This document shows, piece after piece, positions 8,321 to 46,799 of a stretch of 64,000 nt of DNA; position 1 is the stretch's first letter; each line of letters opens with the position of its first letter. Below the pieces are notes generated by a model that saw nothing but the letters and a program-made list of their open reading frames with translations, made no database searches and was not told the DNA's origin. The translations under genes were made by a program, and so were the position numbers. Source of the DNA: Carcharhinus longimanus (Eukaryota); contig JASCQW010000122.1 of assembly GCA_030264375.1 (NCBI GenBank), positions 33,024,550 through 33,088,549 of the forward strand. The letters are read 5' to 3'.

Positions 8321-8395
8321 TCTGACAAAGAGTCATCCAGACTAAAAAGGTTAGCTCAGTTCTCTTTCCACAGATGCTGTGAGTCCTGCTAAGAT
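8321..8395 (+). mobile_element. Short Penelope-like terminal fragment with decayed hammerhead motif (copy A)
   Basis: TCTGACAAAGAGTCATCCAGACTAAAAAGGTTAGCTC..TCCACAGATGCTG, homologous to the other five copies. Confidence 0.7.
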
Positions 8396-8808
8396 GGAAT
8401 GTAAGCCCTTGTAGCTGATGAACATTCCTGGGTGATCTATGGCATATTAGTTGTCATGTGTGCAACTGTTGACACCCAGTGCTTTGTAGGAAGCAGGCAG
8501 AGCCACGAATCCTATCACCACTCATTCTGACTGACATTATCACAGGCACAGTTGACATGATTGGCAGTCCTGGTAAACCGGCATCAATCATCTGGTTTAC
8601 TCACTCCTATCCCGTGGATTGTGAGACGCTGCAAATGTTTCTCCACTGGAGCCCTGGAAGGATCCAGAGGCAGAAACACTGAGGGCAGTGATAACTTTCA
8701 CAGCCGCTGGTAAAACATTGCCACCAAGCTCAGATTCAAGTCTTGCTCCAGCAGTTTTAAAATGTCTGGCACCACCTGACAGATTCCCTGAGTCTCCTGT
8801 AACATTCC
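8393..8808 (-). pseudogene. Fossil PIF/Harbinger (HARBI1-like) transposase fragment
   Basis: LPAAVKVITALSVSASGSFQGSSGE (ORF 8597..8962), then frameshifted GVNSCTH (cf. GVIDCTH) and DHPGMFISYKGLHSI (cf. FINRKGFHSI). Confidence 0.85.
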
Positions 8809-8810
8809 TG

Positions 8811-9165
8811 GGGTGGCACGTTGGCACAGGGATTATCGCTGCTGCCTCACAGCTCCAGGGACACGAGTTCAATTCCGGCCAAGGGTGACTGTGTGGAGTT
8901 TGCATGTTCTCCTCATGTTGTGTGATTTTCCTTTGGGTGCTCGATTTCCTCCCACAGTCCAAAATATGTGGGTTAGGTGGATTAGTTATGCTAAAGTGCC
9001 CCTTACTGAATCGAGATGTGTAGATTAAATAGATTAGCCATGGTAAATGTTTGGTATTACAGGGATATGGCAGGGAGAGGGCCTGGTACTCTGCCAGAGT
9101 GTCAGTACAGACTCTATGGTCCGAATGGCCTTGTCTGCACTACAGGAATCCTATGATTCTATGAT
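8811..9165 (+). mobile_element. HE1-like V-SINE, full length
   Basis: GGGTGGCACGTTGGCACAGGG head, B-box GAGTTCAATTCC, V-domain, tail ATCCTATGATTCTATGATT. Confidence 0.9.
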
Positions 9166-11205
9166 TGGGGTTAAGACGCATTGGAGACTGTCTGTTGATA
9201 GGTTTCATGTGCTGTTGAGCTCCTTCAAGCTGTATCTTTCTGCTGTTCCCCTCTGCTTGTGTCATCTTGTATATGAACATCCAGCACAAGCTTTTAATGC
9301 GAGAGCATCTTCAAAATGTTCTCATCAGCCTTGAATTTGTCAGCTTATAGCAGCAGAGTGTTGATACACTGAGAACTGTTGCTGAAGAAGGATAATGTTG
9401 ACGTAACACAAATATACTCACATGCTACAAGAATGAAGTGGCCGTATTGTGTATTTAAGAGAGAAATAGCTCACTTTGCTGTGGTAATGCGTTACTCACA
9501 TCAGACACGGGAGAAACTGCAGTGAGGAATTAGCTGGAGTGATCATTTACAGGAGAGCAGGTTAGATGCTCTTTCCCACTTTCAAGGATTTTTGCCCTGC
9601 AGTAACAGCATTCAATTTTCCGCTTGCTTTGGATTATTTTGGCAGAGGAGGACCAGCAAGAGGAAATGGCTGTCCACGATGCCAATTGGCACACTTTCGA
9701 ATATAAATCCTGCCAATCTGCTACACAGCACGTTTCCCGTGCCAAACACAGCTATTTGTTAATGAGAACAGAAATGTTCCTAAGGAGCCTGAATTCAGAA
9801 AATAGGCATTGCCATAGCTGTGTTTTCACCAAGACCTCCACTCAACAAGTGACATCTATACAGCGCTGATGCTGTACAGGGTCACAGCTCAAATCGATGT
9901 GACCTTCAGCTGGTTTTTTTTTTAGCACTGGTTCATTGTCCAGTGATATGTCAATAGATTTTCAGGTATTATTAAATTCGGCAGATTTCTTCGCAGATTT
10001 TGTCACTGACCACCAAATGCAGCTCAACGGCTGATACAATTCCACACTACTGCTGCCTTTCCCAAAGCTTACATGGCCCCTTACTAAGCCACAATAGTTT
10101 TTAGATCTGCATTTTTATCTGAATATGGAATATGTTTGGTGACCTGAGCACTGCTGGAAGGGAACTTCGACTACTGCCAACACATGTTTGAAAATTACAA
10201 TAATTTTCCAGGCAATGACTGTAATGTCCGAATGCAGCTAGGGGCTGTGGGTTTTACACAAAAAGGAAAAGACAATTTTGAGCCCGCATTCTCCTCTGTG
10301 GAAATGGTGGAACGTATTCAAAATCCAGAAAGTACAATTCATGCTGGCGGCTTTCCGAGCTCCGTTCTTGCAGGCCTCTCGCCAGTGGAGTGGTGTGAAA
10401 CATATGACGGACTGCAGAAAGCTCATCTTAATACAATAGCATTTCATTAGTGAGCACTATCTCTGGGACTTGGCGGCTGGNNNNNNNNNNGACTTCCCCC
10501 CATGTTCCCCTCCCCCCCCACACCAAATATAGAGCGGGTGCCAATGTGACATCACGCCAGCGCCATTTACATTCGGTTCACCGAGGTGTGAACCTGTTAT
10601 TGGGGTCTCCCTGGGGGTGTGAAGGTGTATATAGCTCCCAGGGAGAGGGATATGGCCAGACATTGGCCTGGCAATGTCCCTTGTCTTTGTCCCTTGGCAT
10701 TGCCCCTTGACACAGATTGACACTTCCAGTTTGGCACCATGCCTACACCAACGTGGAATTGCCAACTTGGCAGTGCCAATTTGGCAGTACCAACCTGTGC
10801 CAAGGGGCAGACCCCAGTGGGAGCGTCATCGGAGAGGATTCATTTATATATGATGGTGGCTGGGAGCTGGGGATGCTAGCGGTGTGTGTTTGGGGAGTGG
10901 GGAATGGCTAGGGTTGGAGAGGTTCCAGCTCTGACTCCCATTAGGTAGGGGGTGAATGCTGGCTACTATTTAGGTTTATTTGGGCAGGGGGTGCTGATGG
11001 TGGGGCTGAATCGCAGCTTTGATTAGGAAGGGTGGGTAGTGGGGGCAGCTGGGGCGAGCCCTTTAGATCTCTGTTGTGGGCTGAGGTGGGGGAAGCTATC
11101 TTCATGTTGTAATTGAGGTGCCCTTTGAACATGGCACCCCGATCTCAGTGCTGCTGGGTTTTGCAGGCGTGTGGTGGCCCCGACTCCCTACTTGATGGCG
11201 TGAAA

Positions 11206-13455
11206 CTGGAAACTGGGAGAAGCTGGAATCAGATGACAGTATTACAGTTGAGTAAAGGTAACTAAAGCAGCATGAGGGAGGAGCTGACCAGAGCCGAGGA
11301 GCCTCGCAGGAAAGACGGTGAAGCAGCAAATGGTGGGAATTTCTGGCAAAAGTTGGGGAAACACGGCAAAGTTTCATCCCAAGGAAGAAGAAGCATACCA
11401 AGGGGAGGACAAGGCAACCATGGCTGACGAGGAAAGTCAGGGACAGCGTAAAAGCAAAAGAAAAAGCATACAGCGTAGCAAAGATTAGTGGGAAGCCAGG
11501 AGATTGGGAAGCCTTCAAAAACCAAAAGAGAACAACGAAAAGAGCAATAAAGGATAGATGAAATAAGGGTAAAGTAGCGAGGAATATAAAAGAAGATTAC
11601 AAGAGTTTTTAAGATATGTAAAAGGGTAAGACAGTCATGAGTGGACATTGGATTGCCAGAAAATAACGTTGAAGTAGTAATGGGAACAAAGAAATGGCGG
11701 AGGTATTTTGCATCAGTCTTCACAGTGGAAGACACCAGTAACATACCAAAAATTCAAGAGAGTCAGGGGGCAGAGATGAGTGTAGTTGCTATTAATAAAG
11801 AAAATATGATTGGGAAGCTGAAAGGTCTGAGAATAGATTATCTAGACCAGATGGACTACACCCCAGACTTCTGAAGGAGATAGCTGAAGAGATAATGGAA
11901 AATGATTAGTGATCTTTCAAGAATCCCTGGAAGCAGGGAGGTTCCTAGAGGACTGGAAAATTGCTCATGTGACAACCCTGTTTAAGCAGGGAGGAAAGCA
12001 AAAGACCAGAAATTACAAGCCAATTAGCCCAACCTTGATCACTGGTAAGATTTTAGAATCCATTATTAAGGATGAGATTTCAGAATATGTGGAATTGCAT
12101 GGTAAAATAGGGTGGAGTTAGCATGGTTTCATCAAGCGGAGCTCATGCCTGAAAATATCTGTTAGAATTCTTTGAGGTAACAATGAGCAGGTTAGACAAA
12201 GGAGAGCCAGTGGACATTATCTACTTGGATTTCCAGAAGGCCTTTTGTCAAGGTGCCAAACAGGAGGCTGTTGAGTAAGGTAATAGCCCATGCTGTTAGA
12301 GGCAAGGTACTAGCATGGATAGAAAATTGGCTGACTGGAAGGCAGCTAAAAGTGGGGATAAATGGGTCCTTTTCACGATGGCAACCGGTGACTAGTGGAG
12401 TTCTGCAGGGGTAAGAATTGGGACCACAACCTTTCACTTTACAAATCAATGATCTAGATAAATGAACTGAGGGGATTGTGGCTAAGTTTCCAGATGATAC
12501 AAAGGTAGAACTTAGAACATTACAGCACAGTACAGGCCCTTCAGCCCTCAATGTCATGTCAGCCTATGAAACGAATCTAAAGCCCATCTAACCTAGGTGG
12601 AGGGACAAGTAGTATTGAGGAGGTAGAGAGGCTGCAGATTAGGAGAGTGGGCAAAGAAGATGGAATACAACTTAGGAAAGTGTAAGGTTATGCACGTTGG
12701 TAGGAAGAATATAAGTGTAGACTATTGTCCAAATGGGGAGAGACTTCAGAAATTGGAAGCGCAAAGGGACTTGGGAATCCTAATTCAGGACTCTCTTAAG
12801 GTTAACTTGCAGGTTGAGTTGATAGTTAGAAGGCAAATGCAATTTTAACATGCATTTCAAGAGGACTAGAATACAAATGCAAGGATATAGTGCTGAGGCT
12901 TTATAAGGCTCTGGTCAGACCACATTTGGAATATTGGTGAGCAATTTTGGGCTCCGTATCTAACGAAGGATGTGCTCGCCTTGGAGAGGGTTCAGAGAAG
13001 GTTCGTGAGAATGATCTGCTCGATGTATGAGGACCATTTCAGGAATTTGGGTCTGCATTTGATGAAGTTTAGAAGGTTGAGGCGGATCTCATTGAAACTA
13101 ACAGAATACTGAAAGACCTGAATAGAGTGGATGTGGGGAAGATGCTTCCATTAGTAGGAGAAACGAGGGATCCGAGGACACAGCGTCAGAGTAAAGGGAA
13201 AACATTTTAGAACTGAGATGAGGAGGAATTTTTTCAGCTAGAGGGTGGTGAATCTATGGAATTCATTGCCACAGAAGGCTGTGGAGGCCAGATCATTGAG
13301 TGTATTTAAGACAGTTTAAGAGAGGTTCTTGATTGGTATGGGGATCAAAGGTTACAGGGAAAAGGAAGAATAGGGTTGAAAAACTTAACATTCATGATCG
13401 AATGACAGAGCAGGCTTGATGGGCCAATGACCTAATTCTGCTCCTGTATCTTATG
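11206..13455 (+). mobile_element. 5'-truncated CR1-clade LINE (HER1-like), ORF2 RT pseudogene
   Basis: Fragments EDWKIAHVTTLFKQGGKQKTRNYKPISPT, DIIYLDFQKAF, KFPDDTK, MEYNLGKCKVMHVGRKN, QRDLG, YKALVRPHLEY; 3' tail GGGCCAATGACCTAATTCTGCTCCTGTATCTTATG. Confidence 0.95.
12506..12593 (-). mobile_element. 3' tail of a second CR1 family inserted antisense in the LINE
   Basis: TAGAACTTAGAACATTACAGCACAGTACAGGCCCTTCAGCCC interrupts the DDTK|xGG codons. Confidence 0.85.
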
Positions 13456-13523
13456 GAAACATGCCCTGTTGTTCTTTTTGTGGCAGAGTGTGGTAAGATC
13501 TGGAGAGAAAACTGACCCACACT

Positions 13524-13662
13524 GGGTGGAATTTTCCGGTCACATCCGCCATGGGAATTGTAGCAAGCAGGACAGAAAATTTGTCAGACCCTGCAAAGGT
13601 CTGTTAACCTTGGGGGGGCAGGGGGTGGGAGTTCTTGGACGTGTGGCCGGAAAATCCTGCCC
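13524..13662. mobile_element. 139-bp Harbinger-type MITE
   Basis: TIRs GGGTGGAATTTTCCGGTCACA / TGTGGCCGGAAAATCCTGCCC; perfect 3-bp TSD ACT (13521-23, 13663-65). Confidence 0.88.
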
Positions 13663-13954
13663 ACTGTTTTTCTTACTGGAACCAACACTGCCATTTCTGT
13701 AAGATTTCACCCACTCTTTATTGCAATTATACATCCTTAAATTCCCATCTTGTGCCATTCCATCCATCCCAGGCCATACCCATTGCTCTCCTCTCTCTCA
13801 CTTCATGCCCAGCTCTATCCCACCCCTTCCCCCTATTCAATCCAATCCACTGGGNNNNNNNNNNNNNNNNNNNNNNNNNNNNNNNNNNNNNNNNNNNNNN
13901 NNNNNNNNNNNNNNNNNNNNNNNNNNNNNNNNNNNNNNNNNNNNNNNNNNNNNN

Positions 13955-14436
13955 GGATTCATTCAGACTTGTTTGTGGGCCAGGAGTAGATGCAGGTGCA
14001 GGGGATGTCCACAATGACCATTGGAGGGGGACGGGAGGAAGACTAGGTGGGAGTGGGTGGGTGCTGACTTCAACTGTGGAGGGGAAGAGGCTGATGATCA
14101 GGGGAGGAATGGGGGAAGAGGCCGATGATTGGGTGAAGGGGGGAGAGAATGCTGACTCCAATTGGGGTGGGGAGGGGAGTCCCTTAGATGGTGGGCAAGG
14201 GTGGGGGGGGGGAGATTTATTCTTGTTATGATTGGGACAAGAGGGTGCCCTGATCTCTGTGCAGCCAGGTTTTGCCGGCATGTGGAGGCCCTACCCCTGC
14301 ATGACAGTTTGACCATTAATTTTTATTGGCAGAGTGTCATTGGATCTGGAGGGAAAATCAATGTGTTTCTCTGGAAAGAAACATGCTGATTTCCTTGTGG
14401 GAAATAACACTGCCATATTTTGGTAAGATTGCACAG
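13955..14436. mobile_element. Right part of a Harbinger-like non-autonomous element (left part in gap)
   Basis: G-rich interior, then a terminal region homologous to 11130-11190 plus 13470-13712. Confidence 0.55.
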
Positions 14437-15262
14437 ATTGCACACGTAAATTCAAATTAACAACAGATTATTTGCCCAGAACAGAAACTGAAACTAAAAC
14501 AGCCAGCCAGTGCAACATCCTAATGACAACACCATCAAATCATGTGATTGGTTCTAAAAGCAGTCATGAAACTCTTTAAATATATAACAATGGTCCCTGC
14601 CCCAAGCATGTATGTGAACACCAACACACTGCCAGGAAGCTCAAAAGCTCTTATTCTATCTTCAGTTTGACATTTCTACCACCTCATTTCTCAAAAAGAT
14701 CAAGATACTCTTACCATGTACCATGGAACAAAGCAAATGGATACTTTATTGAAGCTTATGCTACAAAGAAGTGTCAAGCTTACCATGGGTATTGTCCAAA
14801 AACCTCATAAATTGAGGCTGATTTGGAGTCTTACAGCACAAGCCATCAGATTTATAAAGTAATTGTAATCTTGCATGTGCTGAGAACTTCTCCTGGATAA
14901 GATATCTCAGCGTGGGTTTCAATAGTCAAAATGGTGATGCAGAAGAAGAAAGTTAAATTGTCAACACAAAAATAGCAGGGATGCCAGCAATGAAGCAAGG
15001 AACATTAGTTTACAGGATTCTTTCAAATAGTTACACTATTTCCCATAACAGCAAATAGCATCTGCTAAATATGACCTGTGCCACCTACTTATGTTCAGTT
15101 TTCCAAACACGGCTTACTGTCATTTTATCCTGACCTTCCTCTGTAATCAATGGTATAGAAAGATCCAACAACATGCTCAAGTGAAATAAAATGCATTACT
15201 TTTCTATTACATGTCTTGTGAAACATAACAGCTTGTGTTGGCACATATCAGATCTTATTGAA

Positions 15263-15455
15263 AGATGGAGCAGACTTGATAGGCCAAATGGCCTACTTCT
15301 TCTCCTACATAGAACATAGAAGAACTACAGCACAAACAGGCTCTTGGGCCCACAAGTTGCGCCGAACCTGTCCCCACCTACTAGGCTTGCCTATAAACTT
15401 CTATCTTACTAAGTCCCATGTACTTATACAAAAGTCTCTTAAAAGATATCTTACG
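15263..15455. mobile_element. Two CR1 3' ends joined tail-to-tail
   Basis: Plus-strand tail GATGGAGCAGACTTGATAGGCCAAATGGCCTACTTC abuts minus-strand tail ACATAGAACATAGAAGAACTACAGCACAAACAGGC. Confidence 0.7.
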
Positions 15456-15644
15456 TTTTGGACTGGATACTGGGTTTCACTGGAAGCCTGTTGGGATTCT
15501 GATGGTTTGTGACCTCCCTGGGCAGCGTCTTGCATCTATCTCATAGTTAAGACTGCAGTAACTGGTGTTGCATACTTGAGCTATTTCCATATCTAATATG
15601 TCATGTGCTTGAATGGCAGACATCAGAATCTCCTGTTGTGCTAT

Positions 15645-15900
15645 GAAAAAATGAGAAACTGCTGGAAATATTCAGCAGGTTTGGTAGCATCTGTGGAGAG
15701 AAATGGAATTAAGTCTTCAGGATGATGATCTTTCATCAGAACAGGAAAAGTTTAGAGATGTAACAGGTTTTAAGCAAGTATATATGCAAGGTGTATCTTG
15801 GTGGAAACCAAGAGGACGACAGAAAGAAAGGTCTGCTATAGTATGGAAGGAAGGAGAAATTAAAATGACAAAAAGGCTAATGGTGCAAGCAAGAGTGGGG
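15645..15900 (-). mobile_element. Longer Penelope-like 3' fragment with hammerhead-like motif (copy B)
   Basis: Minus strand: pyrimidine-rich UTR, then GTTCTGATGAAAGATCATCATCCTGAAGACTTAATTC..TCTCCACAGATGCT..CCTGCTGAATATTTCCAGCA. Confidence 0.65.
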
Positions 15901-17821
15901 GTGGGGGGGTGGTGGTGGGAGGTATAATGTCTAAATAATTGAGCTTTTGTTCTTCCCAAGTCCTTGTAGAAAGCTTTGCAGTTTCTGACCTAACAAATTG
16001 TTTCACCTCGCTTAATGCTGCACACTTCTGCAGCGATTAAACAGATGTCTTTGCCTTCTCGTTGCTATTTCAGGTGCTTAACTGCTTTCTAATTGCAGCT
16101 CACAGCTGATTTGGAGGATTACTGCTGTTCCCTCATCATTGGTTAGCCCATCACGCAGGCGTTAAAGCCAACATTTTAGTCCACAAAATGAAAACAACAA
16201 AATTGGATATAAACCAGCTGGAGTCAATTCTCCCCAAAACCTTTCGTAACCTACCAAGGAACTCTCAAACAGCACACAGTCATTTCTAGTCTATGGTTAT
16301 TGACTATTTAAAATGTACCTTGATTGGCTAGTTACCATGTTTCCCATGAAAATGGGCTCTGCTGGAAAAGGCTGTTAGGCGATATGATATTATCATAATT
16401 TTTTCGACTCAGGTTCTCAGAGGAATGGAAGATGAAGGCTCTCCTCTAAATTTTGATAGCAAGGGCTGCATTTTTAATTAAAAAGGACTGTACAAATGGA
16501 TTTGATGCCATGCCAAATTAAATTTTACTTCTTCGGATTTAAAACATTTTAAAAATTGATGTTGAATTTGTGAATTTTTTAAAACTTTGCACTCAAAGGC
16601 CTTAACGTGGTTGTTTGTATCACAAAGTCTACGGAGTTCTATGGCTGAATTACTGTATCAAAATTTCATCTGCGTTCAAGGCAGAAACCCAGTCGTTCAA
16701 CATTGTGGGCTCAGCAATATCAAAAAATAAATGCTGATTAGTCAGCCTCCTCAACACGGGTTTACATGATGAGTGAATGATCACTTTTAGTGACATGCCT
16801 TCTTGAGTTTCTCTGATGTTACCCTGATTGAGATATGTATTAAGAGTATCAATTATATATATGTGCTGAAGAATCAATTAAAATCAAAATCCAGTCATTA
16901 ACCTGCCAATCCCATGATATCAAATGCAATGTATTAGAATCAGAATCAAATCTATGTAATTAAAAGTTTGGATCTGGAATACGCACAAAAGACAAAAGTG
17001 TTCATTGCAGAGAAACCAATGAACATGGAGCAAGCAAAATCAACCATTCAAAACTGCAAGCAAGAATTTTCTATGCCCTTTGAAATGGCCATGTTTGTCT
17101 CCTATTACAGCCTAAAAATAACTTTTGAACAGAATCATTACACAAAACTAAAAAACTGTGATGAAAGAAAGATTACCTATATAATCTCGTAGCTTCAAAC
17201 AATACAGTCACCACTTGATATAGTTACAAATAATAAATCACTCACAAAGCCTCCACCCAGTCATTTCTTGCTGCCAAGCTCGGCAGCCCCACGCACACAC
17301 CCAGCTCTTCATTCCTGTAGAGTGTGAGAATGGCTGTGCTATGTCTCTCCCACACCAAGGACAGTGTAGAAAGCAGCCCTGCTTCAGACAATACCGGCCC
17401 CCACCCCCAACCTCCCCACCTTCCCAAGACCCTGTTCGTGGAAGGAGCAGATTGCCACCCTTTCATCAGGACAAGAGCATCTCTTAACCTGAGCCAAGAG
17501 GCTGTTGAGGTGCAGGTTGCCTGCCCACTTCAGGTGTAAGATGAAGGTGAAAGCCAAATATCTAGAGGCATCTGCAGCACCTGAGACTATTATTCCATTT
17601 ATTGGCATGGAACATGCAGCTCCTTATTAGGCAGGAGTCAGACATATCGCTGAGGATGATAGAAGCTTTGTCCTCACTGCAAGTCGTCATCATTCTCCTA
17701 CAGAGTCAGACCAATGTCTTCAGCCCCCTATCATTGAAAATGTGCAACCTAATGGTTAGATCATGTTGGCACAACATCATTGGTTTGAGTTTACACCCAT
17801 TGTGGGAAATCACATCACCTC

Positions 17822-28579: not shown

Positions 28580-28680
28580 TATTCAATGTGAAATTCCAAA
28601 AACAAAACAACATTGAAACTCCTTATTCCTGACAAGAATGACAGCTGAGAACGACCCACACGACAAGATGTGCTAAGCAG

Positions 28681-28811
28681 GCTCTGGCGAAAGGTCATCT
28701 AGACTCAAAACGTTGACTCCATTCTCTCTCACAGATGCTGTCAAACCTGCTGAGTTTCTCCAACATTTTCTGTATTTATTTCAGATTCCAGCATTTGCAA
28801 TATTTTACCTT
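28681..28811 (+). mobile_element. Short Penelope-like element with decayed hammerhead motif (copy C)
   Basis: GCTCTGGCGAAAGGTCATCTAGACTCAAAACGTTGACTC..CACAGATGCTGTCAAACCTGCTGAG..CAGATTCCAGCA. Confidence 0.8.
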
Positions 28812-29173
28812 AGTCTATGATTGGATACTGCCTGCCCCTTGCCATGACATGTGTTTTTGGAACTGCATGTTATTGGCTGGGTTTACCAGGGTCCTGCTGA
28901 CTTAGTAATTCTTAATATTTGAACTGACTAATTTGACAGCTCCCCTTTCTATTCAATGTAGTTGATGTTTCCACAGCTCTTAAGTCTTCCATTTTCACCA
29001 TTTGATCAGATGATCAACCAATAGTAACAAAGGAAGCAGCATGCAAACAACAACAAAATAAATATTTACACAACATACTTTTCAATTTCAATTTTCAGGT
29101 GTCTTAAACTGATTTTGGAAGTTCCCTACTTCCTGTGCCAACCACCTTACTTTGTCTCTGAGTTGAACTGTTT

Positions 29174-29470: not shown

Positions 29471-29542
29471 CATCAATATGTGTAGAATTAAGAAGTTTTC
29501 TCAATGGATCTCATTTCTAAAGGCTGAGCTAACACTGTTCCA

Positions 29543-31565: not shown

Positions 31566-33202
31566 TAGTTGCCACCGTATCGTATCTATATCCAGTTAGC
31601 GATTGCTATTGGACAAGGCTGAGTTAGACTGCAAACCCGAGAAATCACCATGTGGTCCCAGCTGCACCTTTTTTCTCTGTACGCAGCCCCAGGTTCAATA
31701 GTCCCTCCAGCTTCAAACCTGACCTCGCTCCCCTCTCATCTTCAAATCCATGCTACTAATTCAAAAAGATCCAACTTTTATTTTCCAGATCAATTCTATT
31801 CTGGACACATTCCATTTGATATGTGACCCACGGCTATGTTTCTCCCTTCCTGGGGATTTCGTCAGCCTCAACTTTGAGCCTCTCAAGATTCCTGCCTCAG
31901 CATTGTTCCCCACTGTATCCATGTCCCTGTTGCAATCCTTGACTCTATCATTCACTCTTATGAAAAATTACGAACTCAGATATTTACTGACAACTTATAC
32001 AGCCAAGAGCTAAGCAGGTAATTTAAAAACATGCACAGAGTTTGTAAAGTACAACTAAAATACATGGAAAAAGCAGCAGAAAGAATAATTACATTGAACT
32101 GAAAAATAAACGGAGGCCAAATATATAAACTATTTTCCAAATAAAATAATACGGAAAATAATCAACATTATTAGGGAATAAAACTGCAGGTTTTTTTTAG
32201 TTATTCTGTTTAATATGTTCAATTTTTAAATAATTTTATACGACACAAGGGAGATTAATTACCAATGAAAAATAACTACTAAAAAAGTGCATGTGGCACA
32301 TGAGCAGTCACTATAGAATGTGGAAAATATTCCACAAGGTGACTGGACTACATTACTCACAGTAATGATGATTTAATTATTGAGGAATATTTAATTCTTG
32401 GTCATTTACAAATTCCATTCATAGTATGAAAATCATCATTGTTTTGTACCACTCACTTTCACAGAAATGTAGCCAAATGCATGAAGGAATTAGATATGCT
32501 GTTGCTATAGTACATTACTGTGCTCCTAGAAGTCCTTAACATATGTGCACCATTTGTTCGGGTGCATTGTTTAGACCTAAGCAACGCCCACTGTTGTTCA
32601 GTGGATGTTGTTCAATGGGTACATGAACAATTTTCACCATAAATTCATTTCCTCTACATAAAGTATTTTTTGAGGAGAGAATTATTGACTCTTCAGTGCA
32701 ATATAACAAAGAGACCGTTGAGAGAACTAATGTCCAGTTCAATAAAAAAATGTGTGCTACGGTAGACATCAAACATGCAAAATAGTAAAAAGTGTCAAGT
32801 AGTTGGATGAGCAATTCTTTCCTATGAACTTAGCCCTTCCTGCACTGCACCTTGTTTTCCCATTAATTGTGTGAGTGGTTGGCTTGCTCCCAAACCTCTG
32901 CCTGTGATGTTTTGTAAGATGCTAAAAGATGGCCAAGGGCAGCCTTGCAATGCTGCCTGTCTGATTGTTCATTGCTCTCTGTATGGAAATGGTTCTACGC
33001 TGCTTTGAACACCCGATTCACATCCTGGTTGAGGTCAGGAAATCACCATATTGATTAGACAGAATCTTTTTTGATCCAGATGGTAGAACCATGCCCAAAA
33101 TACTTGGTTCTTAATGAACTTTTCTACACAACAAACACTCTCTGATACTACTGTATTTTGCATCAGAATTAAAGTGCAAAAAAAAGTTCCAAAATGTTAA
33201 AT

Positions 33203-33303
33203 AAAAACAGGAAGTGCTGGGAAAAACTCAGCAGGTCTGGCAGCATCTGTGGAGAGAGAAACTGAGTTAATGTTTTGAGTTCAATATGACTCTTCTTTAG
33301 AAC
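33203..33303 (-). mobile_element. Short Penelope-like element with hammerhead-like motif (copy D)
   Basis: Minus strand GTTCTAAAGAAGAGTCATATTGAACTCAAAACATTAACTC..; 11-bp TSD AAATGTTAAAT at 33192-33202 and 33304-33314. Confidence 0.85.
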
Positions 33304-35356
33304 AAATGTTAAATGTGTAATTTAATTAAAATGAATAAAGAGGATGTAGCACTTAGCCAATAACTACAGAGGTCATTTTTTGAAATAACATTGTCCAAAT
33401 GATATGTTAAACATTGCTTTGTGATCATACTGTGTCTGTGATATAGATTTAGCCACTTAAAAAAAATTGGATAAGTAAAACCATAACAGAGCTTATATTT
33501 ATTGACGGCTGTAACCCTACTGTACACTCATTGCCTCAATTTCAGTGTAATGCATAAACCAGATGTTTGACATGGCTGCACCTTCTCATAGCTTTAGCCT
33601 TCAGTAAATGTTTTACAACTACTCAATAGCAGTGTTTCCCATTCAAGACAGGAAGCTGAGGTAATCGTGAAACATGAGGACCAAGCAGGATCCTTAACTC
33701 ACATGCACGGCAGCTGGTGCTGTCTTCCTCTAGCACCTCTGGCACAGACCTGCTTCTGAGGATGACTGATACCAAAAGAGATGCATGAATTCAGTCAGTG
33801 ATAAGAGCTTTCCCATTCATTTAATCCAATAAGAAGTAATTCATCACACAATGGGAAGCATTTGAAAAACAGAGCCGTGACTAGGGAGATTAACCCCTCA
33901 AAAACAAGGGTTGACAACTGATTTGGTGCAGCACTTTAAAACATAGCTGTGAGCTGATTTGGCACATACTGTCATAGTAATGTGATTTCATTAAGGCTAC
34001 GAAAATTTAAGAAGTGCTAATTTGTTCCAGAAGATAACGTTATTGAATTTGTATGTTGTGGGGCTCTCGGACAATCGACCATGAATTATTTATGAGCATG
34101 CATGGGGTGTTCACACATTCCCCAAACATTGTTCAATTGCTTAGGATGAGTTTCTTGTCGGTGCTAAGTCAGGTCTTCAGAAAGGGGGAAAACAGAATAT
34201 TTATGCAGCATGGTAATAAATGACAGCCCTTATTGTATTTCGCTACATTTCCCGAATCATCGATTCAATAAACAGTTAGACATTGTCTTGTTTGCATGCT
34301 TACAGGATTCAAACATAAAGGCTTTATATCAGAAAAAGGGAGAGAGAATGAAGTAAACATGAAGTAGTAGGGCTCTAATCGTTACCATTTAATAACAGTT
34401 TTATGTATGCTCTCTTTAAGAATGGGCGCAGTGCTGTTTCTGAATTGTAAATTTTGCTGTTAAGAGTGCAGGGCTCAACTGGGAATTAGTGGCCACTCAT
34501 TAACCAGTAAGATGTTATTTATTTATTTTGTTTATTAGGTGACATGTAATACTTATATCCAGAGGGAATCCCTCGGAGGACAGATGTTTCACAAGTTTGA
34601 CCTTGGTTGTTGTAACTATCTATGGTTTGCTTAGAATTCCAATAACATACAATGTTTTCAGATACTGATATTGTGCATGTTGAGTTGGATACCAGCGTCC
34701 TGAATGCCTTTTATTTCCCTCTAGCTTATGGGCTCATTCTGATAAGTGAACAAACGTTTTAGTCACAAAAAGCATTATTTTGTATGACTGCTCATACAAT
34801 CCGACACGGGCATGGTAATAAAATCAGTTGCTGGCAGCCATTTTGTGTTAATTCTGTTAGGCTGCACTATGTTTTTCAACACTAATCATTTCACATCCTT
34901 TCACGTGGATAAAAAAAATAAACTTTATGAAACAAAATATTGTAATTCAAGCTCAATGTATTTCCTAGAGGGCTCCTGCCTCAAGGCAGACTATTTCAAC
35001 TTGCTCGTGTGAGCAGGCGAGCAGTGTTACTTTATGAGACGTAGGTGCCAAATTGCTCTCTCCTCATCTGGCAGGAGGCATGATTATTGCTGGCTGAGCA
35101 AAACTAAAATATTTTCTTCATTTAAAGTGAGCATCACATCTGGTTTTTAAGCAGCAACCAGCTAAGGACTGAGGGACAAGTTAACATGGCCAATAGATTC
35201 TCTCATTAATGCTCTCACCCTACCCCAACACAGATCCTCTGAGCGGAGTTAAACTAGGTGTGTACCATACAACAATCTTTCAACCATTCAGTAATTCTTT
35301 CAAAGTCAAATATTGAATTTAGATCTGAACTCTGACCTCCATGTTGTTTAAAATAT

Positions 35357-36789: not shown

Positions 36790-36849
36790 ATTCCTTTTAT
36801 ATATCCCCCCTCTTTTTAAACCCAATCTCTGCTGCCTTCTGCTATAAAG

Positions 36850-37410: not shown

Positions 37411-37705
37411 CCAATGTCCATTAACCTGCGACTCCCAAACATCCAGTAACCTGCGAATCCCCCCAAAACATCCAGTAACCTCCAACTCCCCAAAATATCC
37501 TATAACTTCTCACTCCCTAAACATCCAGTAACCCGCGACTCCCCCAAACATCCATTAATCTTCAACCCCAAACATCCAGTAACATGCGACCCCCATAACA
37601 TCCAATAATCGGTGACCCACCCCAAACGTCCAGTAACCTCTGTGACCCCCCAACATCCAGTAACCAGTGACTCGGCCGAACATCCAGCAATCTGCAACAC
37701 CCCCA
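37411..37705. repeat. Degenerate ~27-bp minisatellite (about 11 units)
   Basis: Repeated AAACATCCAGTAACCTGCGACTCCCCC variants. Confidence 0.85.
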
Positions 37706-38059
37706 CAATCACCACCAGTCCTGACCCTTTCATCCATGGGCACCTGCTGACTGCAGTGTGCAAATGACAGGCACAAATGCCCATACTGGAGCCACACAAG
37801 CCATTCTTGGACTGCAGGATGGCCGTCTATACCCAGTGGAAACTTTCATAAAGCAAATCAGGCATTTATTACATGAATCAGAACACACAAGCAGAGAAAT
37901 ACTATCTGCTTAATCATCCTTGAGGCTCTAACTAGTCTTTTGACTTCCCCCATCATTCCAATCAAAGTCGTGTTCAAAGTGGTCACAAAGTCCTCCAGCT
38001 AATGGCTGGTTGTGAACAGACAAAACTCCAGTGGAACCTATAATTGTAAATATCAGTAA

Positions 38060-39015
38060 AGAAATAAAGACTTACATTTATATTGCACCTTTCACAACCT
38101 TGGGATATACAAAGCACATTACAGCCAATTAATTCTTTGTCTGAAATGTCATTACTGTCGTTTAGGAAACACGGCAGCCAATCTGCAACAGCAAGGTGAC
38201 ATTAACAGCAGTATGATAATGAGCAGATGATCTGTTTTTGTGGTGTTGATTGATAAATATTGGATAGGACTTTTTTTGTTCATTTATCAGACAGGGGCAT
38301 CGCTGTCTGGCCAGCATTTATCGCCCATCCCTTGTTACCCTTGGAGAGCAATGAGAGTCAACAACATTGCTGTGTCTCTAGAATCAGATGTCGGCCAGAC
38401 CAGCTAAGGATGGCAGATTTCCTTCCCTCAAGGACATGAGTGAACTAGACAGCTTTTTTCGACAATCAACAATGGTTTCATGGTCGTCAGTAGATTCTTA
38501 ATTCCAGATATTTTTTACTGAGTTCAAGTTCCATCAGCTGCTGTGGTGGGATTTGAACCCGGGTTCCCAGACCATTAGCTGAGTTTCTGGATTAATAGTC
38601 TAGTGATAATACTACCATGGTATTATCATGCCATGTGATCTTTTATGCCTACTTAAGAGAGGCAGACAGGCCTCAGTTTAACATTGTATCTGGAAATCAG
38701 CTCTTCCAACAGTGAGCACTCCCTCAGTACTGCACTGGTGTGTCAGCCTAGGTTTTGGTGCTCAAATCTCTGGGATTTCTGGCCTCCCTGTGTGCATTTC
38801 CCAGGTGCAGAAGCAGCGTGCCATTGGTTGACAGTGGGATCTTCCAGTCCCTCCGATATATATTGCATTTTGATTGGCTCATTCATCCTAACGTCAGAAA
38901 ACCCACCGCAAGGGTTTGATATCGGCCACACCAATGGATAGGGCTGGAAAATCTCTGTGATGGGGCTTGAACCTATAACCACCTGACACAAAAGTAAGAT
39001 TTCTGCCAACTTGAG
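38060..39015 (-). mobile_element. Deu-domain SINE containing a family-2 SINE (~38271-38625) and a MITE (~38772-38957)
   Basis: Deu tail AAAGACTTACATTTATATTGCACCTTTCAC, core ACAGTGAGCACTCCCTCAGTACTGCACTGG, B-box GGGCTTGAACC, with two intervening elements. Confidence 0.85.
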
Positions 39016-39216
39016 ACATGAACGAACAACTGGATTATTTTCATAACTTCAATTTATCAATTTGTGGTTGACAATAAATGCACTAGTACATTTAAGATGA
39101 TATTTTACATTTTCTACAATCCCACCAACTTAAATGCAGGGATTTCACAAAACCCTTTATACGCAGAAAATATTCATGTTATTTCTGGAAGCCACTGACA
39201 CGTGGGAGAAATGTTA

Positions 39217-39343
39217 AAAGCAAAATACTGTGGATGCTGGAAACATAAACAGAAAATGCTGGAAGATCTCAGCAGGTCTGACAGCATCTGTGGGGAGAGA
39301 ATAGACCCAACGTTTCGAGTCGAGATGACCCTTTGTCAGAAGT
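39217..39343 (-). mobile_element. Short Penelope-like element with hammerhead motif (copy E)
   Basis: Minus strand TTCTGACAAAGGGTCATCTCGACTCGAAACGTTGGGTCT; 10-bp TSD AGAAATGTTA at 39207-39216 and 39344-39353. Confidence 0.88.
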
Positions 39344-42300
39344 AGAAATGTTAGCCTTTTCCAAACAAACCTGATGTGCCTTTGTGTAATTTGCGCTCAC
39401 TGATCCAAAAGTAGAATTATAACTGACAAAAGTGTTTTTCATTTCTAAAGCTGGAGATTACAAACTTCAGGATTTTAAGCCAGTAACCATTGCCAACTGT
39501 TTCTCTAATACTTGTTTCACGTTATTTTTGAAATGGAAAATACACAATAAATAAACACGATCAGAATCTTGTGAAATCTATAAGGCAATGACGATCAGTT
39601 TGATGTTTTTTCTAACTATTGTCCTCCAAATTGAAAGTTTTTGCTGGTCTGTTTCCAAATCTTTTCTCTTAGACACTTGACCCCACTGATATGTGGAATC
39701 AATGAACCATATCACTATCATGAGAGTGCCAAGTACTGCATGGAAAATGACAGCAGGACATTATTTTATTCTGGCCAGATGCAGCCAAAAGTGAAAAAGG
39801 AAATGCATGAAAGAGAATGATTTGGAACGGACGGAATGGCTGTGTGAACTGGAACTCAATCTCTTAATAAGAGGCAACTTCTGAATACACTCATAAGGAA
39901 GTAACCCGAGGGCAGCTTCGAGGCTTAGCTTGACTTTATTGCCAAAAGCCATTTTTATTTGAACATAATGCTTGTTTCACAACCCTACTATGTCAGTGGT
40001 GCACTGAAGAATTAGCAACATGTCTTTTCATTTGGAACAGTTTTTCTTCTTTCAAAATACGTTCAGGCTGTAAGGATATTGCTGCTCAGAATTGAAAGGG
40101 TTAAGCAACTATGTGCTGTGAGTTGTGCTATTGAGAATCCCTGGAGAGCTGTGCATGTTTGGTTGGTGTTACTATAACTGACAAAGTTCTACAGACTGTG
40201 TCTGGTGGTACATTCCAATGTAATACAGGAGATGGCCAAGCAGGGGGTCCAGGAAAAGGCTAGACAGGGTCACTTCCCTGCTGCAAACAGGAACATTTGA
40301 TGGTACCAAACAAATTTAACTGCTATAATTTCTGAGTTCATAATTTTCCCATAAATGTCAGGTAAATGTTGCATGACGAAACAATTTGAGCCAATTTTAA
40401 AGTTATTAGAGAAATCAGTTATTAAGATAACGTTATCAAGATTCAAGCCCCTCCCTCAAACAAATTTAAACTCTAAACATTGCAAAGTTACCGAAGGGAA
40501 AATGTAGTTGCTTTAGTTGAATACAGCTCATTCATAAGCATACACAGCAACGACTACTTGTACAAAGGTATAGATATAAAGTACAAATACTATTCAAGCA
40601 CGTACATTTTATACAGCACTACTTGGGATTCAGCCAAATCTTATGTTATAATGAGGGGAACAGCATCAGAGAAGTTTTATTTAGTTCAGTGACATGCACT
40701 GAGGGCAACTTCGGGAGTATTTAGTTTTATCAGCATTGTTTTGCCAATACTTTAAATAGTAATTATTATTAAATAGAAAGCTGATTAAGCTAATCGGGCT
40801 CAAGCTAACTCACTACAGAGTCGTTCTTGTCTTTTTTATTTTTCCTTATAATCTTGTGTACAAATGTTCCATTTTGGGTGGTCTTTTCCAAGTAAAAATC
40901 ATTGTTCCTCCCAAATCCTGTACTCGTCCCAGTCTTAAAGACTGTTTGAGTTCTTTATCTACATTGCATCTGCTCAGAATACCAGACTGAGTTAGTTCCT
41001 TTCCCTATCCAATGTTGCTCCTACTCTCTCCATATTTTGTTGTACCATTACAAAAACCCAGGGTAACTACCATGGCATTTATTGCATTTATGATCTGTCA
41101 GTGAGCAGCTGCAATCCTTTCAATATAAAAGATGGCAGCAAAACGCCATGAAGCCAATAGCTCTGAGAAGTGGGATTCATTCAATACTGCTATAAATTCC
41201 AATAATATTATTTATAGCATTACATTTGGGTACATTGTCAGTATCATATGAGAAATTGACATTTTGCTCACTTTTGTGTTCAGAGAACAGGCTGGATGTT
41301 TTTTTGGGGAGAGGGGAGAGGGGGAGAACTTTTGATAATTCTGTCCTTAAACAACACTTAGCAAAAAAGAATTTTACTTTTGGGGAAAGCCATTTAGGAA
41401 TCCCTTTGAGGGCCATTTGGGTAGACCTCTCAACACTGAAAGAAAGTGTGCATGTTACACTTATTTCTTCTAGTAAGTTGTGATGAGAATTCTACAATGG
41501 GAGCTTGATTTATATATTTAAACTCACCCTTCTGTTTTGGGTGGGAATTTCTCACCGCCCCTTAAAGGTCTGATGGAAAGATGTTCCTAGTTACATGAGG
41601 TCCTCACCAGATTTTAACAACTGGTTGCTTGTTTTCAGGCAAGTAACAGGCGGACAGCAGTTGAAAGTCTCCCCTCACTTGTCTGCTAACACATACTGGG
41701 TCGTCCCTGTTCACCCACAACCGCTTTGTAATTAACTGGTAGTAATGTAGAACACTCATCTTTCTCAGGAACAGTGGCAAGAAAAATGACATAGATTAAT
41801 GAATATTTGAAATGAATTGCAAATACAAGCTATCACTTTTTTTGGACAAAATGAGTGCCACTGACCGGGAATGAACTCTGGAGTGCCTCCTCGAGTACAC
41901 TCTCTATTAATTAAAACATATGAAAAGTATGATTCTGTCTCTATTTATCCACTTAAGCACCATTTCAAGATACTTTAAACATAAGGTGAGAATCAGAGGT
42001 GACTTATTTATTACAATATACTCTTCAGATTCACTGGTTTAAAGTCACTGTGTTTCCACAAATATAAAATTGAAAAAAAACAAGGAATCCAGCTAAGTTT
42101 CTAAGCTTTGATCTTGCCTCAGACGGCAAAGCTTATCTTAATTATATTCTATACTGTAAAAGCAGTTTACAATTCATATTGTTACACAGCCAGACAGTAG
42201 TAGCTGTGCATGTACTACAGCGGAAATGTCCTCTTATTATTTCCACTTGATGGGGAGAAATCTACCGGCACATCATTTAAGATAAAGATCAGTCTCCTAA

Positions 42301-43685
42301 TTTGAATTCCAGACCTCTAGGCTCTACTCCACTGACATCTCTTCAGCATATGTGACATTTACCAGTGATACCATTATATCATTTCAAACTCAAGAGACCT
42401 GAAGGGAAGATGCAAAGACATATTAGAATACTGATTACATCAAAGGAAAAACTTTCAGGTTTTGAAAATATCTTAGAACAAAAAAAATTACCCTTTGGAT
42501 AATCTCTTTGCTGCAAATTAATTTTGCTTCAAATTAAGCCCGATTTTGTTTAACCTTTTGAGAGTGATCTAATGCTATAAAAACAACTTATCACCTGCTT
42601 GTCAGTAATAGCAAATTGAACTATTTATGGGGCATCAAGATAGGTCAATAGGCACAATTTTTACCTTCACCCTCTTTGAAAAGCTTAAGAAAGAGGGCAA
42701 CTGTCAATCTAACAGTGTGGCAATCATTACAGGTTTGCAGTGAAGCAGAAAAATGCTGTAATGAACAGGTCCTGCAGCCTTCTATCAGTCCATTCATCCT
42801 ACACTTTCAGTGCTCGAGCCTTCTGGCCTTGCTGAGCCACAAATCCCAATCCAGCTGTTTAACCCTATTACTAGTACATGATGGGCACTCCTGTCACTAG
42901 AATGGTTGCAACAGTCGGATGCGCAGAATCTATCTTTCAGACAGGTAAACCTGCAGATAATTTATTTTTATGTGTTAGTGAGCCTGTTGACAGGAGTCAG
43001 GTGGCATCTATAACACAAAATGTGTTTATGAAGTGCTTACATGTACCCGAACAGAGTCTGCACCAGTCTCCATCTGAGGCTGCGAGGAATAGAAATATGC
43101 TATTTAATTTCAGCTTCTGCTCATCTGTCCAGATAAAAGAGTGTGAATATTACTTCAGATTTAGTAGAAGTCCAATATGGCCATACATATCGCTGAAGCT
43201 ATTAGTGACACCTGGAATCATTCACATTAACTTAAAATCTTGCACCATAAATTTCTGGCATGAAATTTTGCCATTAAAGATTATTCTGAATTCTCATAAT
43301 GAATGGCTCAATGTTTTTGATAATGAAAATATACACTCTTCAGAAGGACTTGCATAATGTCTGGCTAATGAATGAAAAGAGATATGACATTTTCAAGATT
43401 TTTTTCAGGAGTTCCCTGCAAAAAGCAAAACTGTATTTATTTTGTGTTCCCACAGTACAACAAAAATACAACATCTCATTTAGCATTCAAAGTTATTATG
43501 ACCTAAAATACTTGTCATCATTCGAATCGATTGAGATGACAGGGATTTTTTGTAAATGATTTCACTTTTGTTGTTAATCTATTTGTACCACTCTTCATTT
43601 TTATCTATATTTTATTTCTGAATGCACTGTTTTAAATCTAGGTGGAGTATATATCAAGAATAATTTCCATGGTAAAGATTCTGAT

Positions 43686-43687
43686 AC

Positions 43688-43722
<35 letters not shown>

Positions 43723-43723
43723 C
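43686..43723. repeat. (CA)n microsatellite
   Basis: About 19 AC units with one interruption. Confidence 0.97.
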
Positions 43724-45211
43724 CAGTAATTTTCTTTACTGTAAAACGAAAGCTATTTTTCCCACATCTATTTGTTACAGCTATGGCAGTCAGCACAATC
43801 TGTTCAAAGTACATTTCACTGTCCTTCACCAAGTAGAACTGTTAGAGGAGACATTTTGCCTCTAACTCCTAATTCTCTCACCAGTTAACAAGAAGCTGCT
43901 CTTGATATTAAACCCTGCGAAATGAAAGTCGAGGATCAAATATTTTTCATAGTTTTATGTGGATGGTTTTATGAAAATTGCTCAAGTCTAAAAAGTCATA
44001 GCCTCAATGTAGCCAAGGTTAAGGATAATTTATCCATGATATTTCTAATTTTATTCAGAGCCCTTTTATTACTTTGCAGGCCTTTATGACTTTAAAGAAA
44101 ATGTCAGTGGAGGTAAATGACATGGTACTCAATAATCTACTCACAAGTTTGAAGGTATTCAAAAATATCTCGCATTACTTCAGCTATTTTCTACCAGAGC
44201 TTGCTCCCAAACAACAGTTTTGCACAGAATTTTGTTTATATTGTTTCCACTCTTCTTGCTTTTTCTTTCCTCGCCCCTTTACCACTTCTTCTCTCTAAAT
44301 GCTAATTTTTTTTTTAGCTGTGTAGCAGTGTGTTAATCTATTACAACTAATTAAAGTGTTGTAGCTAATACAATTTTACCTCTGAATTTTTTTTGCTTCT
44401 TGTATACAATTATTGTAGCCGGGGTAAATAAATCAATATTCCCAATCCAACTGTAAAAAACAATCAAGGAATGTACTGCTTCTCAGGGACAACACCAAAT
44501 AATATTTATTAACTCAGCTGCAATTCACTGAAGAGACTAATACCACTGAAGCATTCTCTGCAAGCGTAATAATAAACAAACGATGGAAGTGGCACATGCC
44601 AATAATTTCACCACTTTACATCCCACAGTAATTGTAGCGTTTAATGAGGAACAAAAAATATGCACTCTGTCAAATAATAAAGAACAAGCTGTATTCTGGA
44701 TAAATTAGCTTCTACACATCTATTACTTTGATGTCTTGAACAAACCCGATGTTGTTGGAAAATACACACCATGCAATAGAAATCTAACGCCTTGGTCTCT
44801 GAGCAAATATAGATTTTCTTCCCTTCGAGGAAGTCAACTTTTTAAAATTCTCCTTTTGCCGCAGATCTGATTTCAGCACACATTGTAGTGTGTGAGGGAA
44901 AAGCATTTCTGTAGCATAACATGCATTTGGTGTTGAGGATGCAACCATTTGAAATAGACGAATGCGTTTAGAACCACACTATTTTTTAAATGAGCTCTTT
45001 TCCGCACTTGTAATGAAGAAGTTATAATGTGAGTACTGAAAGTAAAAAGAACAAAATGATAAATCATAATAATTAGCTGATAACAAATCTGAACTCATGT
45101 TTAATTGGGATTAACCTCACCACAGAGCGTGTAGCATGAGGCGATCCCAAGTGCTAAAGCAATCTGCACCAATTTGATTCTATAAAAAGTTGGGCTGTGA
45201 TAATCATAGAA

Positions 45212-45525
45212 TCCCTACAGTGCAGAAGGAGCCCATTCAGCCCATTGATTCTGCACTGACCACAATCCCACCCAGGGCCTATCCCTGTAACCCTGCATAT
45301 TTACCCTTGCAAGTCCCCCCGACATTAAGTGGCAATTTAGCATGGCCAAGCAACCAAACCTGCACTTCTTTGGACTATGGAAGGAAACTGGAGCACCCAG
45401 GGGATGCCTACACACATGTGGGGAGAACATGCAAACTCTACAGAGACAGTCACCCAAGGTCGGAATTGAACCCAAGTCCCTGGAGCTGTGAGGCAGCAGT
45501 GCTAACAACTGTGCCAATGTGCCAC
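45212..45525 (-). mobile_element. HE1-like V-SINE, full length
   Basis: AATCATAGAATCCCTACAGTGCAGAAGG tail to GCAGCAGTGCTAACAACTGTGCCA head. Confidence 0.92.
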
Positions 45526-45589
45526 ATATATTATGTATGAATATTAGCATTGTTGTCAATGTGCATCAAATGTTTGCTTCATTTTCTGT

Positions 45590-45922
45590 CAGTATGGTAG
45601 CACAGTGGTTAGCATTAGGAACCTGAATTCAATTCCGGCCTCAGGTGACTGTGTGGAGGTTGCACGTTCTCCCTGTGTCTATGTTTCCCCTGGGTGCTCT
45701 GGTTTCCTCCCATTGTCCAAAGATGTGCAGGATAGGTGGGTTGATCATGCTAAATTGCCCTTTAGTTTACCAAAATATGTAGGTGGATTAGCCATGGTAA
45801 ATGCATGGGGTTACGGAGATAGGGCAGGTGTGGATCTGGATAAGGTGCTCTCTCAGAGAGTTAGTGGAGACTCAGTGGACCCACCAGCCTTCCTCCTGCA
45901 CTGTAGGGAATCCAAGACTCTG
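45590..45922 (+). mobile_element. HE1-like V-SINE
   Basis: GGTAGCACAGTGGTTAGCA head, V-domain, CTGCACTGTAGGGAATCC tail. Confidence 0.88.
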
Positions 45923-46627
45923 AGTGACTGTTAACAATATGGATTCCCTATTGAATGGAGGTCACTGAGAAGAATAAGCAAGTCCAGTGTGCATTCTCAG
46001 TGAATATGTGACTGCTGTAGTTTTGTAAGACACTTGGCCCCTCAAAGGCTTTCAATTCAGCATGTCATGATTTTATGGCATATTTACATATTCAAAAGAG
46101 GATTCATTCAAATAGTTTATACAAAATCTTTCAATGTGTTAACAACGCTATTCTTCATCATTCCATTTGACGAGTCCAGCATTGCAGATATTCTCTTCTT
46201 CAAAAATAAAAACGTGGTAATGTAGGAGTTGAAATAGGCATAAACCTTCATCAAAACATAGATACAGGAGATGAAAGTTTCCAGTTCTGCCGGCAGCAGG
46301 AAGCCTGGTGAGCAGGAGAGCTCAATTTGGGGTGAGCCATTGAGATGCCATCCGACTCCTGTCGACACTTCTGTGCTGGGCTCCTTTGGCTCTAACATCT
46401 GCTGCAACCTTTATAGTCAAACGTGAGGGTCTGCTGTTGCCATCCTGGGAAATAGCAGCTCCTGTCCTTCCTGGATGGGCTGGGGGAAGAGTCTCCACGG
46501 AATCTTTGCTGAATCATGGGGGCCACTCATTGTTGATTTCTCTCGGACATTCCTCCCCCAGTGCCAAAGGACTGCCACAATGAAGCTCCTCCCCTACAGT
46601 GAATGGAAGGCTGGCCTTTAAATATAG

Positions 46628-46795
46628 TAAAGGCAAAATACTGTGGATGCTGGAATCTGAAACAGAAACAGAAAATGCTGGAGAAACTCAGCAGGTCTGA
46701 AAGCATCTGTGGAGAGAGAATAGAGTCAACATTTGGAGTCTGGATGACCCTTCATCAGAGCTCTGATGAACAGTCATCCAGACTCGAAACGTTGT
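46628..46795 (-). mobile_element. Short Penelope-like element with inverted (head-to-head) hammerhead pair (copy F)
   Basis: 12-bp TSD CTTTAAATATAG at 46616-27 and 46796-807; palindrome centred at 46760/46761. Confidence 0.9.
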
Positions 46796-46799
46796 CTTT
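46757..46799 (+). ncRNA. Putative minimal type I hammerhead ribozyme motif
   Basis: AGAGCT-CTGATGA-A-CAGTC ATCCA GACTC-GAAAC-GTT-GTCTTT: intact catalytic core, 4-bp stem II, palindromic ACGT stem III, imperfect stem I. Confidence 0.65.

Follow-up and report, generated by a model that had tools for sequence, protein, structure and literature searches.

A hammerhead-derived repeat family in shark DNA resembles the pseudo-LTRs of Penelope-like retroelements

Do six short hammerhead-like sequences scattered over 64 kb of shark DNA form a ribozyme-processed unit of their own, or are they the remains of a larger retroelement? The question arises from a stretch of 64,000 nucleotides of Carcharhinus longimanus (contig JASCQW010000122.1, positions 33,024,550 to 33,088,549; hereafter the window), in which an initial annotation, made from the letters alone, noticed six related copies of a type I hammerhead ribozyme (HHR). 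Our analysis indicates that the six copies are probably old, dead solo insertions of the pseudo-long terminal repeat (pLTR) of elasmobranch Penelope-like retroelements (PLEs), the template being the leader of an autonomous PLE transcript.

A repeat family with a decayed minimal hammerhead

Self-blastn of the window and an nhmmer profile built from the six copies revealed homologous loci at 8321 (+), 15645 (-), 28681 (+), 33203 (-), 39217 (-) and 46628 (-), confirming both the places and the strands given by the initial annotation. The local identity among the copies is 75-87%, with E-values down to 1e-38, and in the profile alignment pairs of copies are 59-86% identical. The copy at 15645 is the most divergent, with 59-72% identity to the others, a shorter loop II and two double-sided changes in stem II. 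The profile recovered all six copies together with an inverted arm at 46760-46797 (E 7e-6), and no further copy above threshold was found in the window.

Alignment of the seven motifs, that is, the six direct copies and the inverted arm, shows a stem I leader, CUGAnGA, one bulged A (after A9), a 5-bp stem II, GAAA, a loop-less CG palindrome, UU and the stem I partner. This is a minimal type I hammerhead, as had been recognized at the outset, and the bulge and the loop-less palindrome fit the consensus of PLE minimal HHRs in Fig S3 of PMC4209133. The core (CUGAnGA, GAAA, U16.1 and H17) is present in the family reconstruction and intact in none of the six direct copies. The shared consensus first proposed therefore holds as a reconstructed core, but not as the sequence of any single copy. 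At 13 conserved positions the six copies have 3, 3, 3, 2, 1 and 1 mismatches; the inverted arm has one, G10.1>C, with both catalytic boxes intact. Six of the 13 positions are invariant in all seven motifs, and the remainder show mostly CpG-type or single changes. A strict descriptor found no match without a core mismatch and two with one mismatch (39339- and 46758-), compared with none in each of eight Markov-resampled windows. The leader AGAGCT, taken earlier to be common to the family, is found only in 46628, where its first two letters possibly come from the fold-back, and the common leader is about 4 nt.

The residue G12 is the minority base, present in two of the six copies and in three of the seven motifs when the inverted arm is included, and GAAA is thus reconstructed. 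This reconstruction is supported by CpG decay and by codons in proteins outside the window. At three reconstructed CpG sites 13 of 36 cells differ, against a difference in 21 of 186 cells at other positions (Fisher p=6e-4, computed on six motifs without copy 15645), and nine of the 13 are transitions, in line with the CpG-type decay suspected from the start. In seven of nine scorable outside proteins, a residue R, W or G is found whose codon has G at the G12 position. Stems I and II are in register, with 77.9% of 77 cells pairing versus 19.5-48.1% in slid registers, although the structure was drawn from the same sequences, which favours register 0.

As monomers, the seven motifs folded no better than shuffles (z -1.2 to +0.6), RNAalifold picked a different hairpin for the aligned motifs, and the cofold minimum differed from the domain-swapped dimer. 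Lunse et al. are said to have described dimer cleavage in 2017. Judging from sequence, the family descends from a minimal hammerhead, and its six copies are almost certainly dead as ribozymes.

Insertion anatomy and the predicted template

Exact direct repeats adjoin three of the six copies, 33203 (11 bp), 39217 (10 bp) and 46628 (12 bp), a result reached by 0.2-0.5% of 3000 random window pairs. These target-site duplications (TSDs) are all AT-rich, each contains ATTT, and they bound inserts of 101, 127 and 168 nt, respectively. Imperfect TSDs of the remaining copies were rejected: the best one of 8321 (10/13) had a score reached by 75 of 150 null draws, that of 15645 with its upstream extension (12/14) was reached by 25 of 150, and that of 28681 by 145 of 150. 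The TSDs at 33192-33202 and 39207-39216, which are independent, have the 8-mer TAACATTT in common, hinting at a target preference.

Two main 3' ends lie 32-36 nt apart and define an optional tail, which is found in 28681, 39217 and 46628 and is missing in 15645 and 33203; copy 8321 stops even earlier than the short end and also has no tail. The TSD-defined 5' junctions are at -3, -4 and, for an inversion axis, -2/-3 relative to C3, i.e. within -2 to -4 (n=3). Under uniform truncation, three junctions within 3 nt have a probability of 0.004 or 0.0002, by the range assumed. With its 5' junctions grouped in the opening bases of stem I, the unit is discrete beyond what random truncation would be expected to give, and the earlier suggestion of a discrete unit stands to that extent. 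A simple random truncation of PLE 3' ends from the 5' side, without a favoured boundary, is an improbable explanation in view of this clustering. In addition, the window has no copy that starts within or downstream of the core, and such copies would have been picked up by the profile search. It has in its favour that PLEs are heavily 5'-truncated, most genomic minimal HHRs being single and truncation-related (PMC4209133), that the lengths of the arms matched outside the window vary, and that copy 15645 may reach further upstream. The longer size implied earlier for this last copy was not upheld, as the 200 nt upstream of it gave no second copy in the window (nhmmer) and no protein-level match; the candidate extension yielded only weak tblastn matches, to P0014 (E 0.006) and P0012 (E 0.015).

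Copy 46628 carries a 35-nt inverted arm joined head-to-head, with the axis in the palindrome AGCT (46759-46762). A fold-back transcript of this copy is predicted to form a hairpin of about 30 bp burying both cores (-64.4 kcal/mol, z -7.4). The inverted arm, at 46761-46795 (+), ends 2 nt beyond the predicted cut, or as much as about 7 nt if TSD microhomology is counted, in this one case, and could be cDNA of the 5' cleavage product. The fold-back at 46725-46796 is pre-miRNA-like in size and shape, and such loci could feed small-RNA pathways; the Rfam matches obtained were numerous sub-threshold miRNA-hairpin matches to this fold-back, plus chance matches.

A miniature inverted-repeat transposable element or fold-back DNA element would have such arms as its terminal inverted repeats, the likeness to a hammerhead being incidental. 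The palindromic copies with TSDs, the lack of an Rfam hammerhead match and the poor monomer folding are all compatible with it. However, the single-armed copies 33203 and 39217 have exact TSDs of their own, TSD length varies (10, 11 and 12 bp), and the arms are unequal. The invariant HHR positions and the in-register stem pairing (78% versus 20-48%) also stand against it, and we give this explanation hardly any credence.

All six copies contain the predicted cut site uncut, with the core upstream of it and about 43-100 nt downstream. Since the site is spanned in every copy, the templates were uncleaved RNA, and the description of the unit as ribozyme-processed finds no support. Very unlikely, too, are monomers of a non-LTR retrozyme, arising from a tandem transcript by double self-cleavage and re-inserted via a circular RNA. 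Retrozymes do have a type I HHR, a circle-derived copy could include the cut site, and pLTR-derived retrozymes are reported from one chondrichthyan genome (bioRxiv 10.64898/2026.07.22.740005). However, no head-to-tail array of the unit is present among the 15 TRF rows of the window, the units measure 76-135 nt versus 150-450 bp, and the HHR is minimal, not canonical (PMC7229834). Moreover, the ends are fixed rather than permuted, and the partners are inverted, with the predicted transcript hairpin burying both cores. Nor does the unit have the features of a tRNA-derived short interspersed nuclear element (SINE). No unit has both an A box and a B box on the sense strand (one mismatch allowed), and the sense 3' ends are T-rich, with no A-rich or simple-repeat end. 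ARAGORN found no tRNA gene. The retrozyme-like or SINE-like identity suggested by the initial annotation is thus not retained.

Matches in other sharks and searches for a parent

Outside the window, the translation profile of the repeat matched 22 distinct proteins, of which 21 are true; P0011, a repetitive bacterial-type false positive, was dropped before counting. Two named shark isoforms were matched, GFOD1 X2 of Carcharodon carcharias and GLE1 X2 of Chiloscyllium plagiosum, in agreement with the shark host proposed earlier. These matches confirm an elasmobranch repeat common to at least two shark genera. The repeat lies inside annotated shark protein isoforms and therefore affects gene annotation. 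Of the 21 true matches, 11 have an arm on the reverse strand ahead of the forward one and none has it behind; shuffled proteins gave no reverse match (0 of 210). Many of these outside arms break off internally, at points that differ, as far as the coarse resolution of a protein alignment can tell. GTDB pattern scans gave no match and then one chance match within a bacterial coding region (L001).

The sequence CCACAG/ATG (e.g. 46712-46704 (-); also P0007 and P0009), a pyrimidine tract plus CAG that is near-invariant in the six copies, resembles a 3' splice acceptor. The bamboo shark GLE1 isoform, like P0009 (PIP5K domain; second copy), is homologous to the repeat from this methionine onward, which suggests exonisation. 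A second acceptor-like site is located at the start of the tail, and directly upstream of the 15645 core the stretch 15755-15740 (-) is branch-point-like and pyrimidine-rich. In the Drosophila virilis Penelope, an intron ends at helix I (PMC4209133).

A coding parent was sought in the window and among the outside proteins. No Pfam match was obtained in the 150 longest of the 222 window open reading frames (ORFs) of at least 66 aa, nor in six frames of 12-18 kb, a scan that also overlooked a visible reverse transcriptase (RT) remnant of the long interspersed nuclear element (LINE) type. A six-frame motif scan of the window found no credible PLE motif, these ORF scans being weak and insensitive to decayed ORFs. 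The window contains no partial tandem of the form pLTR-ORF-pLTR, and none of the 20 unnamed outside proteins has an RT or GIY-YIG domain. The stretch 13955-14290 (-), RT-like by eye, had no Pfam match and was dropped.

Proposed origin and comparison with known elements

PLE membership of the shark repeat is inferred from its non-coding anatomy. The features of EN+ PLEs found here include a tail of 32-36 nt in three of six copies, a TSD of 10-12 bp in three of six, and an inverted head-to-head partner in one of the six window loci and in 11 of the 21 outside matches. With four structural PLE features and no ORF found, the unit resembles by analogy a PLE pLTR with a minimal hammerhead, and the Penelope-like origin that the initial annotation had proposed is supported by this insertion anatomy (TSDs, tail and head-to-head arms).

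Based on these features we propose the following course of insertion. A PLE protein with RT and GIY-YIG activities, acting in cis or in trans, would nick AT-rich DNA. Reverse transcription would be primed at either of two fixed internal points, giving the short end or the tail end 32-36 nt further. Copying of the uncleaved PLE RNA would proceed through the hammerhead and end at a fixed 5' limit in the opening bases of stem I; this limit could be the RNA start, or an RT stop or template switch at the palindrome. Repair would then leave the TSD of 10-12 bp. A second, inverted cDNA would often be joined head-to-head via the AGCT palindrome at the 5' limit, and the copies would afterwards decay, mostly at CpG. 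The hammerhead would be a passenger in these copies, any function of it lying in the tandem transcript of the parent, as a dimer or with protein help.

Several results weigh against this origin. No RT or GIY-YIG domain is linked to the family in the window or the outside proteins, and no significant TSD was found at 8321, 15645 and 28681. The 5' clustering comprises three junctions only, one of them an inversion axis. Rfam, which the initial annotation had named as a check, gave no hammerhead match at E<=10, whether the whole window or two copies alone were scanned. Finally, stem covariation, a criterion set by the initial annotation, is not above that of shuffles, with the three double-sided pairs reached by 159 of 500 and the covariation score by 45 of 500.

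The same anatomy could come from a discrete non-autonomous family with master loci of its own, whose non-coding RNA of 100/133 nt starts at stem I and is mobilised uncleaved by a PLE in trans, like a SINE in behaviour and not in origin. The clustered 5' junctions argue for it, and in the other two short copies the homology ends near that point. The missing ORF link also fits, and a pLTR needs no further sequence to be mobilised in trans (PMC3846280). However, the same limits recur in copies with two or more types of stem II (59-86% identity), a pattern that a shared mechanism accounts for more readily than one master, and the internal points at which many outside arms break off differ. In addition, no promoter was identified for the unit, and internal priming at the upstream pLTR of an autonomous PLE would give an identical product. 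We therefore regard such a family as possible but rather unlikely. Somewhat more doubtful still is a version in which a discrete 100/133-nt non-coding, PLE-dependent elasmobranch retroelement has its RNA from the first base of stem I and is inserted by two-ended target priming, a PLE protein dimer priming both nicked strands and the two cDNAs meeting via the AGCT palindrome. If this were true, inverted arms that stop at the cut, as in 46628 (+2 nt), would be cDNAs of 5' cleavage products and a genomic footprint of cleavage in vivo.

The preferred origin, solo pLTR insertions of autonomous PLEs, can be compared with described elements. Minimal type I hammerheads are recorded in the pLTRs of metazoan PLEs, among them Xena, Poseidon and Neptune of fishes, coelacanth and Xenopus (Cervera and De la Pena 2014, PMC4209133). 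Like the metazoan PLE minimal HHRs of that work, the shark motif has CUGAnGA, one bulged base, stem II, GAAA, a palindromic 15.2/16.2 without loop 3, UH and a short stem I, and it occurs mostly as single dispersed motifs, with some opposite-strand pairs as reported in 2014. In contrast, the rows of Fig S3 and the supplement text covered include no chondrichthyan; the shark stem II, set against those HHRs, has 5 bp, and the shark family is known here without an ORF-linked copy.

In a typical PLE, an inverted pLTR lies head-to-head across a palindromic junction and is enclosed by a TSD of 8-10 bp (PMC3846280); the optional tail measures 30-40 bp (PMC8557442), 31 bp in PMC3846280. The shark unit agrees with the Penelope pLTR of Adineta vaga (PMC3846280) and with the PLE scheme (PMC8557442) in the inverted head-to-head arms, the palindromic junction, the TSD of about 8-12 bp and the presence of solo pLTRs. 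It also agrees with the A. vaga pLTR in its optional tail (about 31 nt there) and in having its end a few codons inside a putative ORF. The reading frame from the ATG 22 nt beyond the cut runs for about 16 codons as far as the short end and for 26 when the tail is present, cf. 12 and 22 codons in the rotifer pLTR. Unlike the latter, the shark unit is about 100 nt rather than about 200 bp and has no ORF between repeats.

The Poseidon_Ac element of Anolis (PAc) cuts ATT in AT-rich DNA, and Frangieh et al. map the tail to two internal RT start sites (PMC11167929). Its main template is the unprocessed RNA, matching the six uncut shark copies. The shark unit thus shares with PAc two 3' ends defining a tail, AT-rich targets containing ATT, an uncleaved template and an HHR a short way upstream of the RT start. 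PAc has its ORF beginning at stem II, whereas the only ATG shared by the shark family is located past the cut. The unit is also like the metazoan non-LTR retrozymes (PMC7229834; bioRxiv 10.64898/2026.07.22.740005) in being non-coding and PLE-related, with a type I HHR and possibly dispersed monomers. It differs from them in not being tandem (in the window), in its shorter length, minimal HHR and fixed ends, and in its inverted partners. The 2026 preprint reports both retrozymes and PLEs in one chondrichthyan.

The class itself is already known, since PLE-end hammerheads, solo and inverted pLTRs, tails and TSDs have all been published. No published description of the shark family was found in the literature searched, which did not cover Repbase and Dfam. 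If the window is representative, six loci in 64 kb suggest a very high copy number. The junctions may also serve as a natural experiment on how PLE inverted ends form and on whether a PLE hammerhead ever cuts in vivo (PMC3846280, PMC11167929).

Table 1. Positions of the repeat copies and associated features in the window
Feature	Position	Strand	Description
Copy 1 (8321)	8318..8395	+	decayed minimal HHR and downstream segment; 3'-short, about 76 nt; ends from homology only
Copy 1, key sites	C3 at 8322; predicted cut after 8352	+	
Copy 2 (15645)	15645..15743	-	C3 at 15739; short 3' end without tail
Copy 2, candidate upstream pLTR extension	15744..15934	-	pyrimidine-rich; membership in the element unsupported
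Copy 3 (28681)	28680..28812	+	minimal HHR, C3 at 28684, cut after 28714; downstream segment and tail; about 133 nt
Copy 4 (33203)	33203..33303	-	101 nt; start -3 relative to C3 (33300); short 3' end, tail absent
Copy 4, 5' TSD	33304..33314	-	11 bp, exact; partner 33192-33202
Copy 5 (39217)	39217..39343	-	127 nt; start -4 relative to C3 (39339); tail present; core mismatch G8>A
Copy 5, 5' TSD	39344..39353	-	10 bp, exact; partner 39207-39216
Copy 6 (46628), direct arm	46628..46760	-	minimal HHR, C3 at 46758, cut after 46728, G12>C; downstream segment and tail
Copy 6, optional 3' tail	46628..46659	-	32 nt; 32-36 nt if TSD microhomology is allowed
Copy 6, inverted arm	46761..46795	+	seventh HHR motif, head-to-head; predicted cut after 46793
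Copy 6, 5' TSD	46796..46807	-	12 bp, exact; partner 46616-46627; encloses both arms (168 nt)

Other repeats were observed in the window. The decayed LINE-type RT remnant lies at about 12000-13400 (+), has no Pfam match, and is CR1/L2-like by its motifs. A multi-copy SINE-like family with a tRNA-like head, resembling the elasmobranch HE1 SINE, is found at 6060, 8810, 35355, 35507, 45380-45525 (-), 51667 and 55005. Two minisatellites, at 37417-37671 and 7720-7920 with periods of 27 bp and 50 bp, are unrelated to the hammerhead unit. The segments 51817-51937 and 52954-53075 form a near-100% identical inverted duplicate of about 130 bp beside a 100-N gap, which is probably an assembly artefact.

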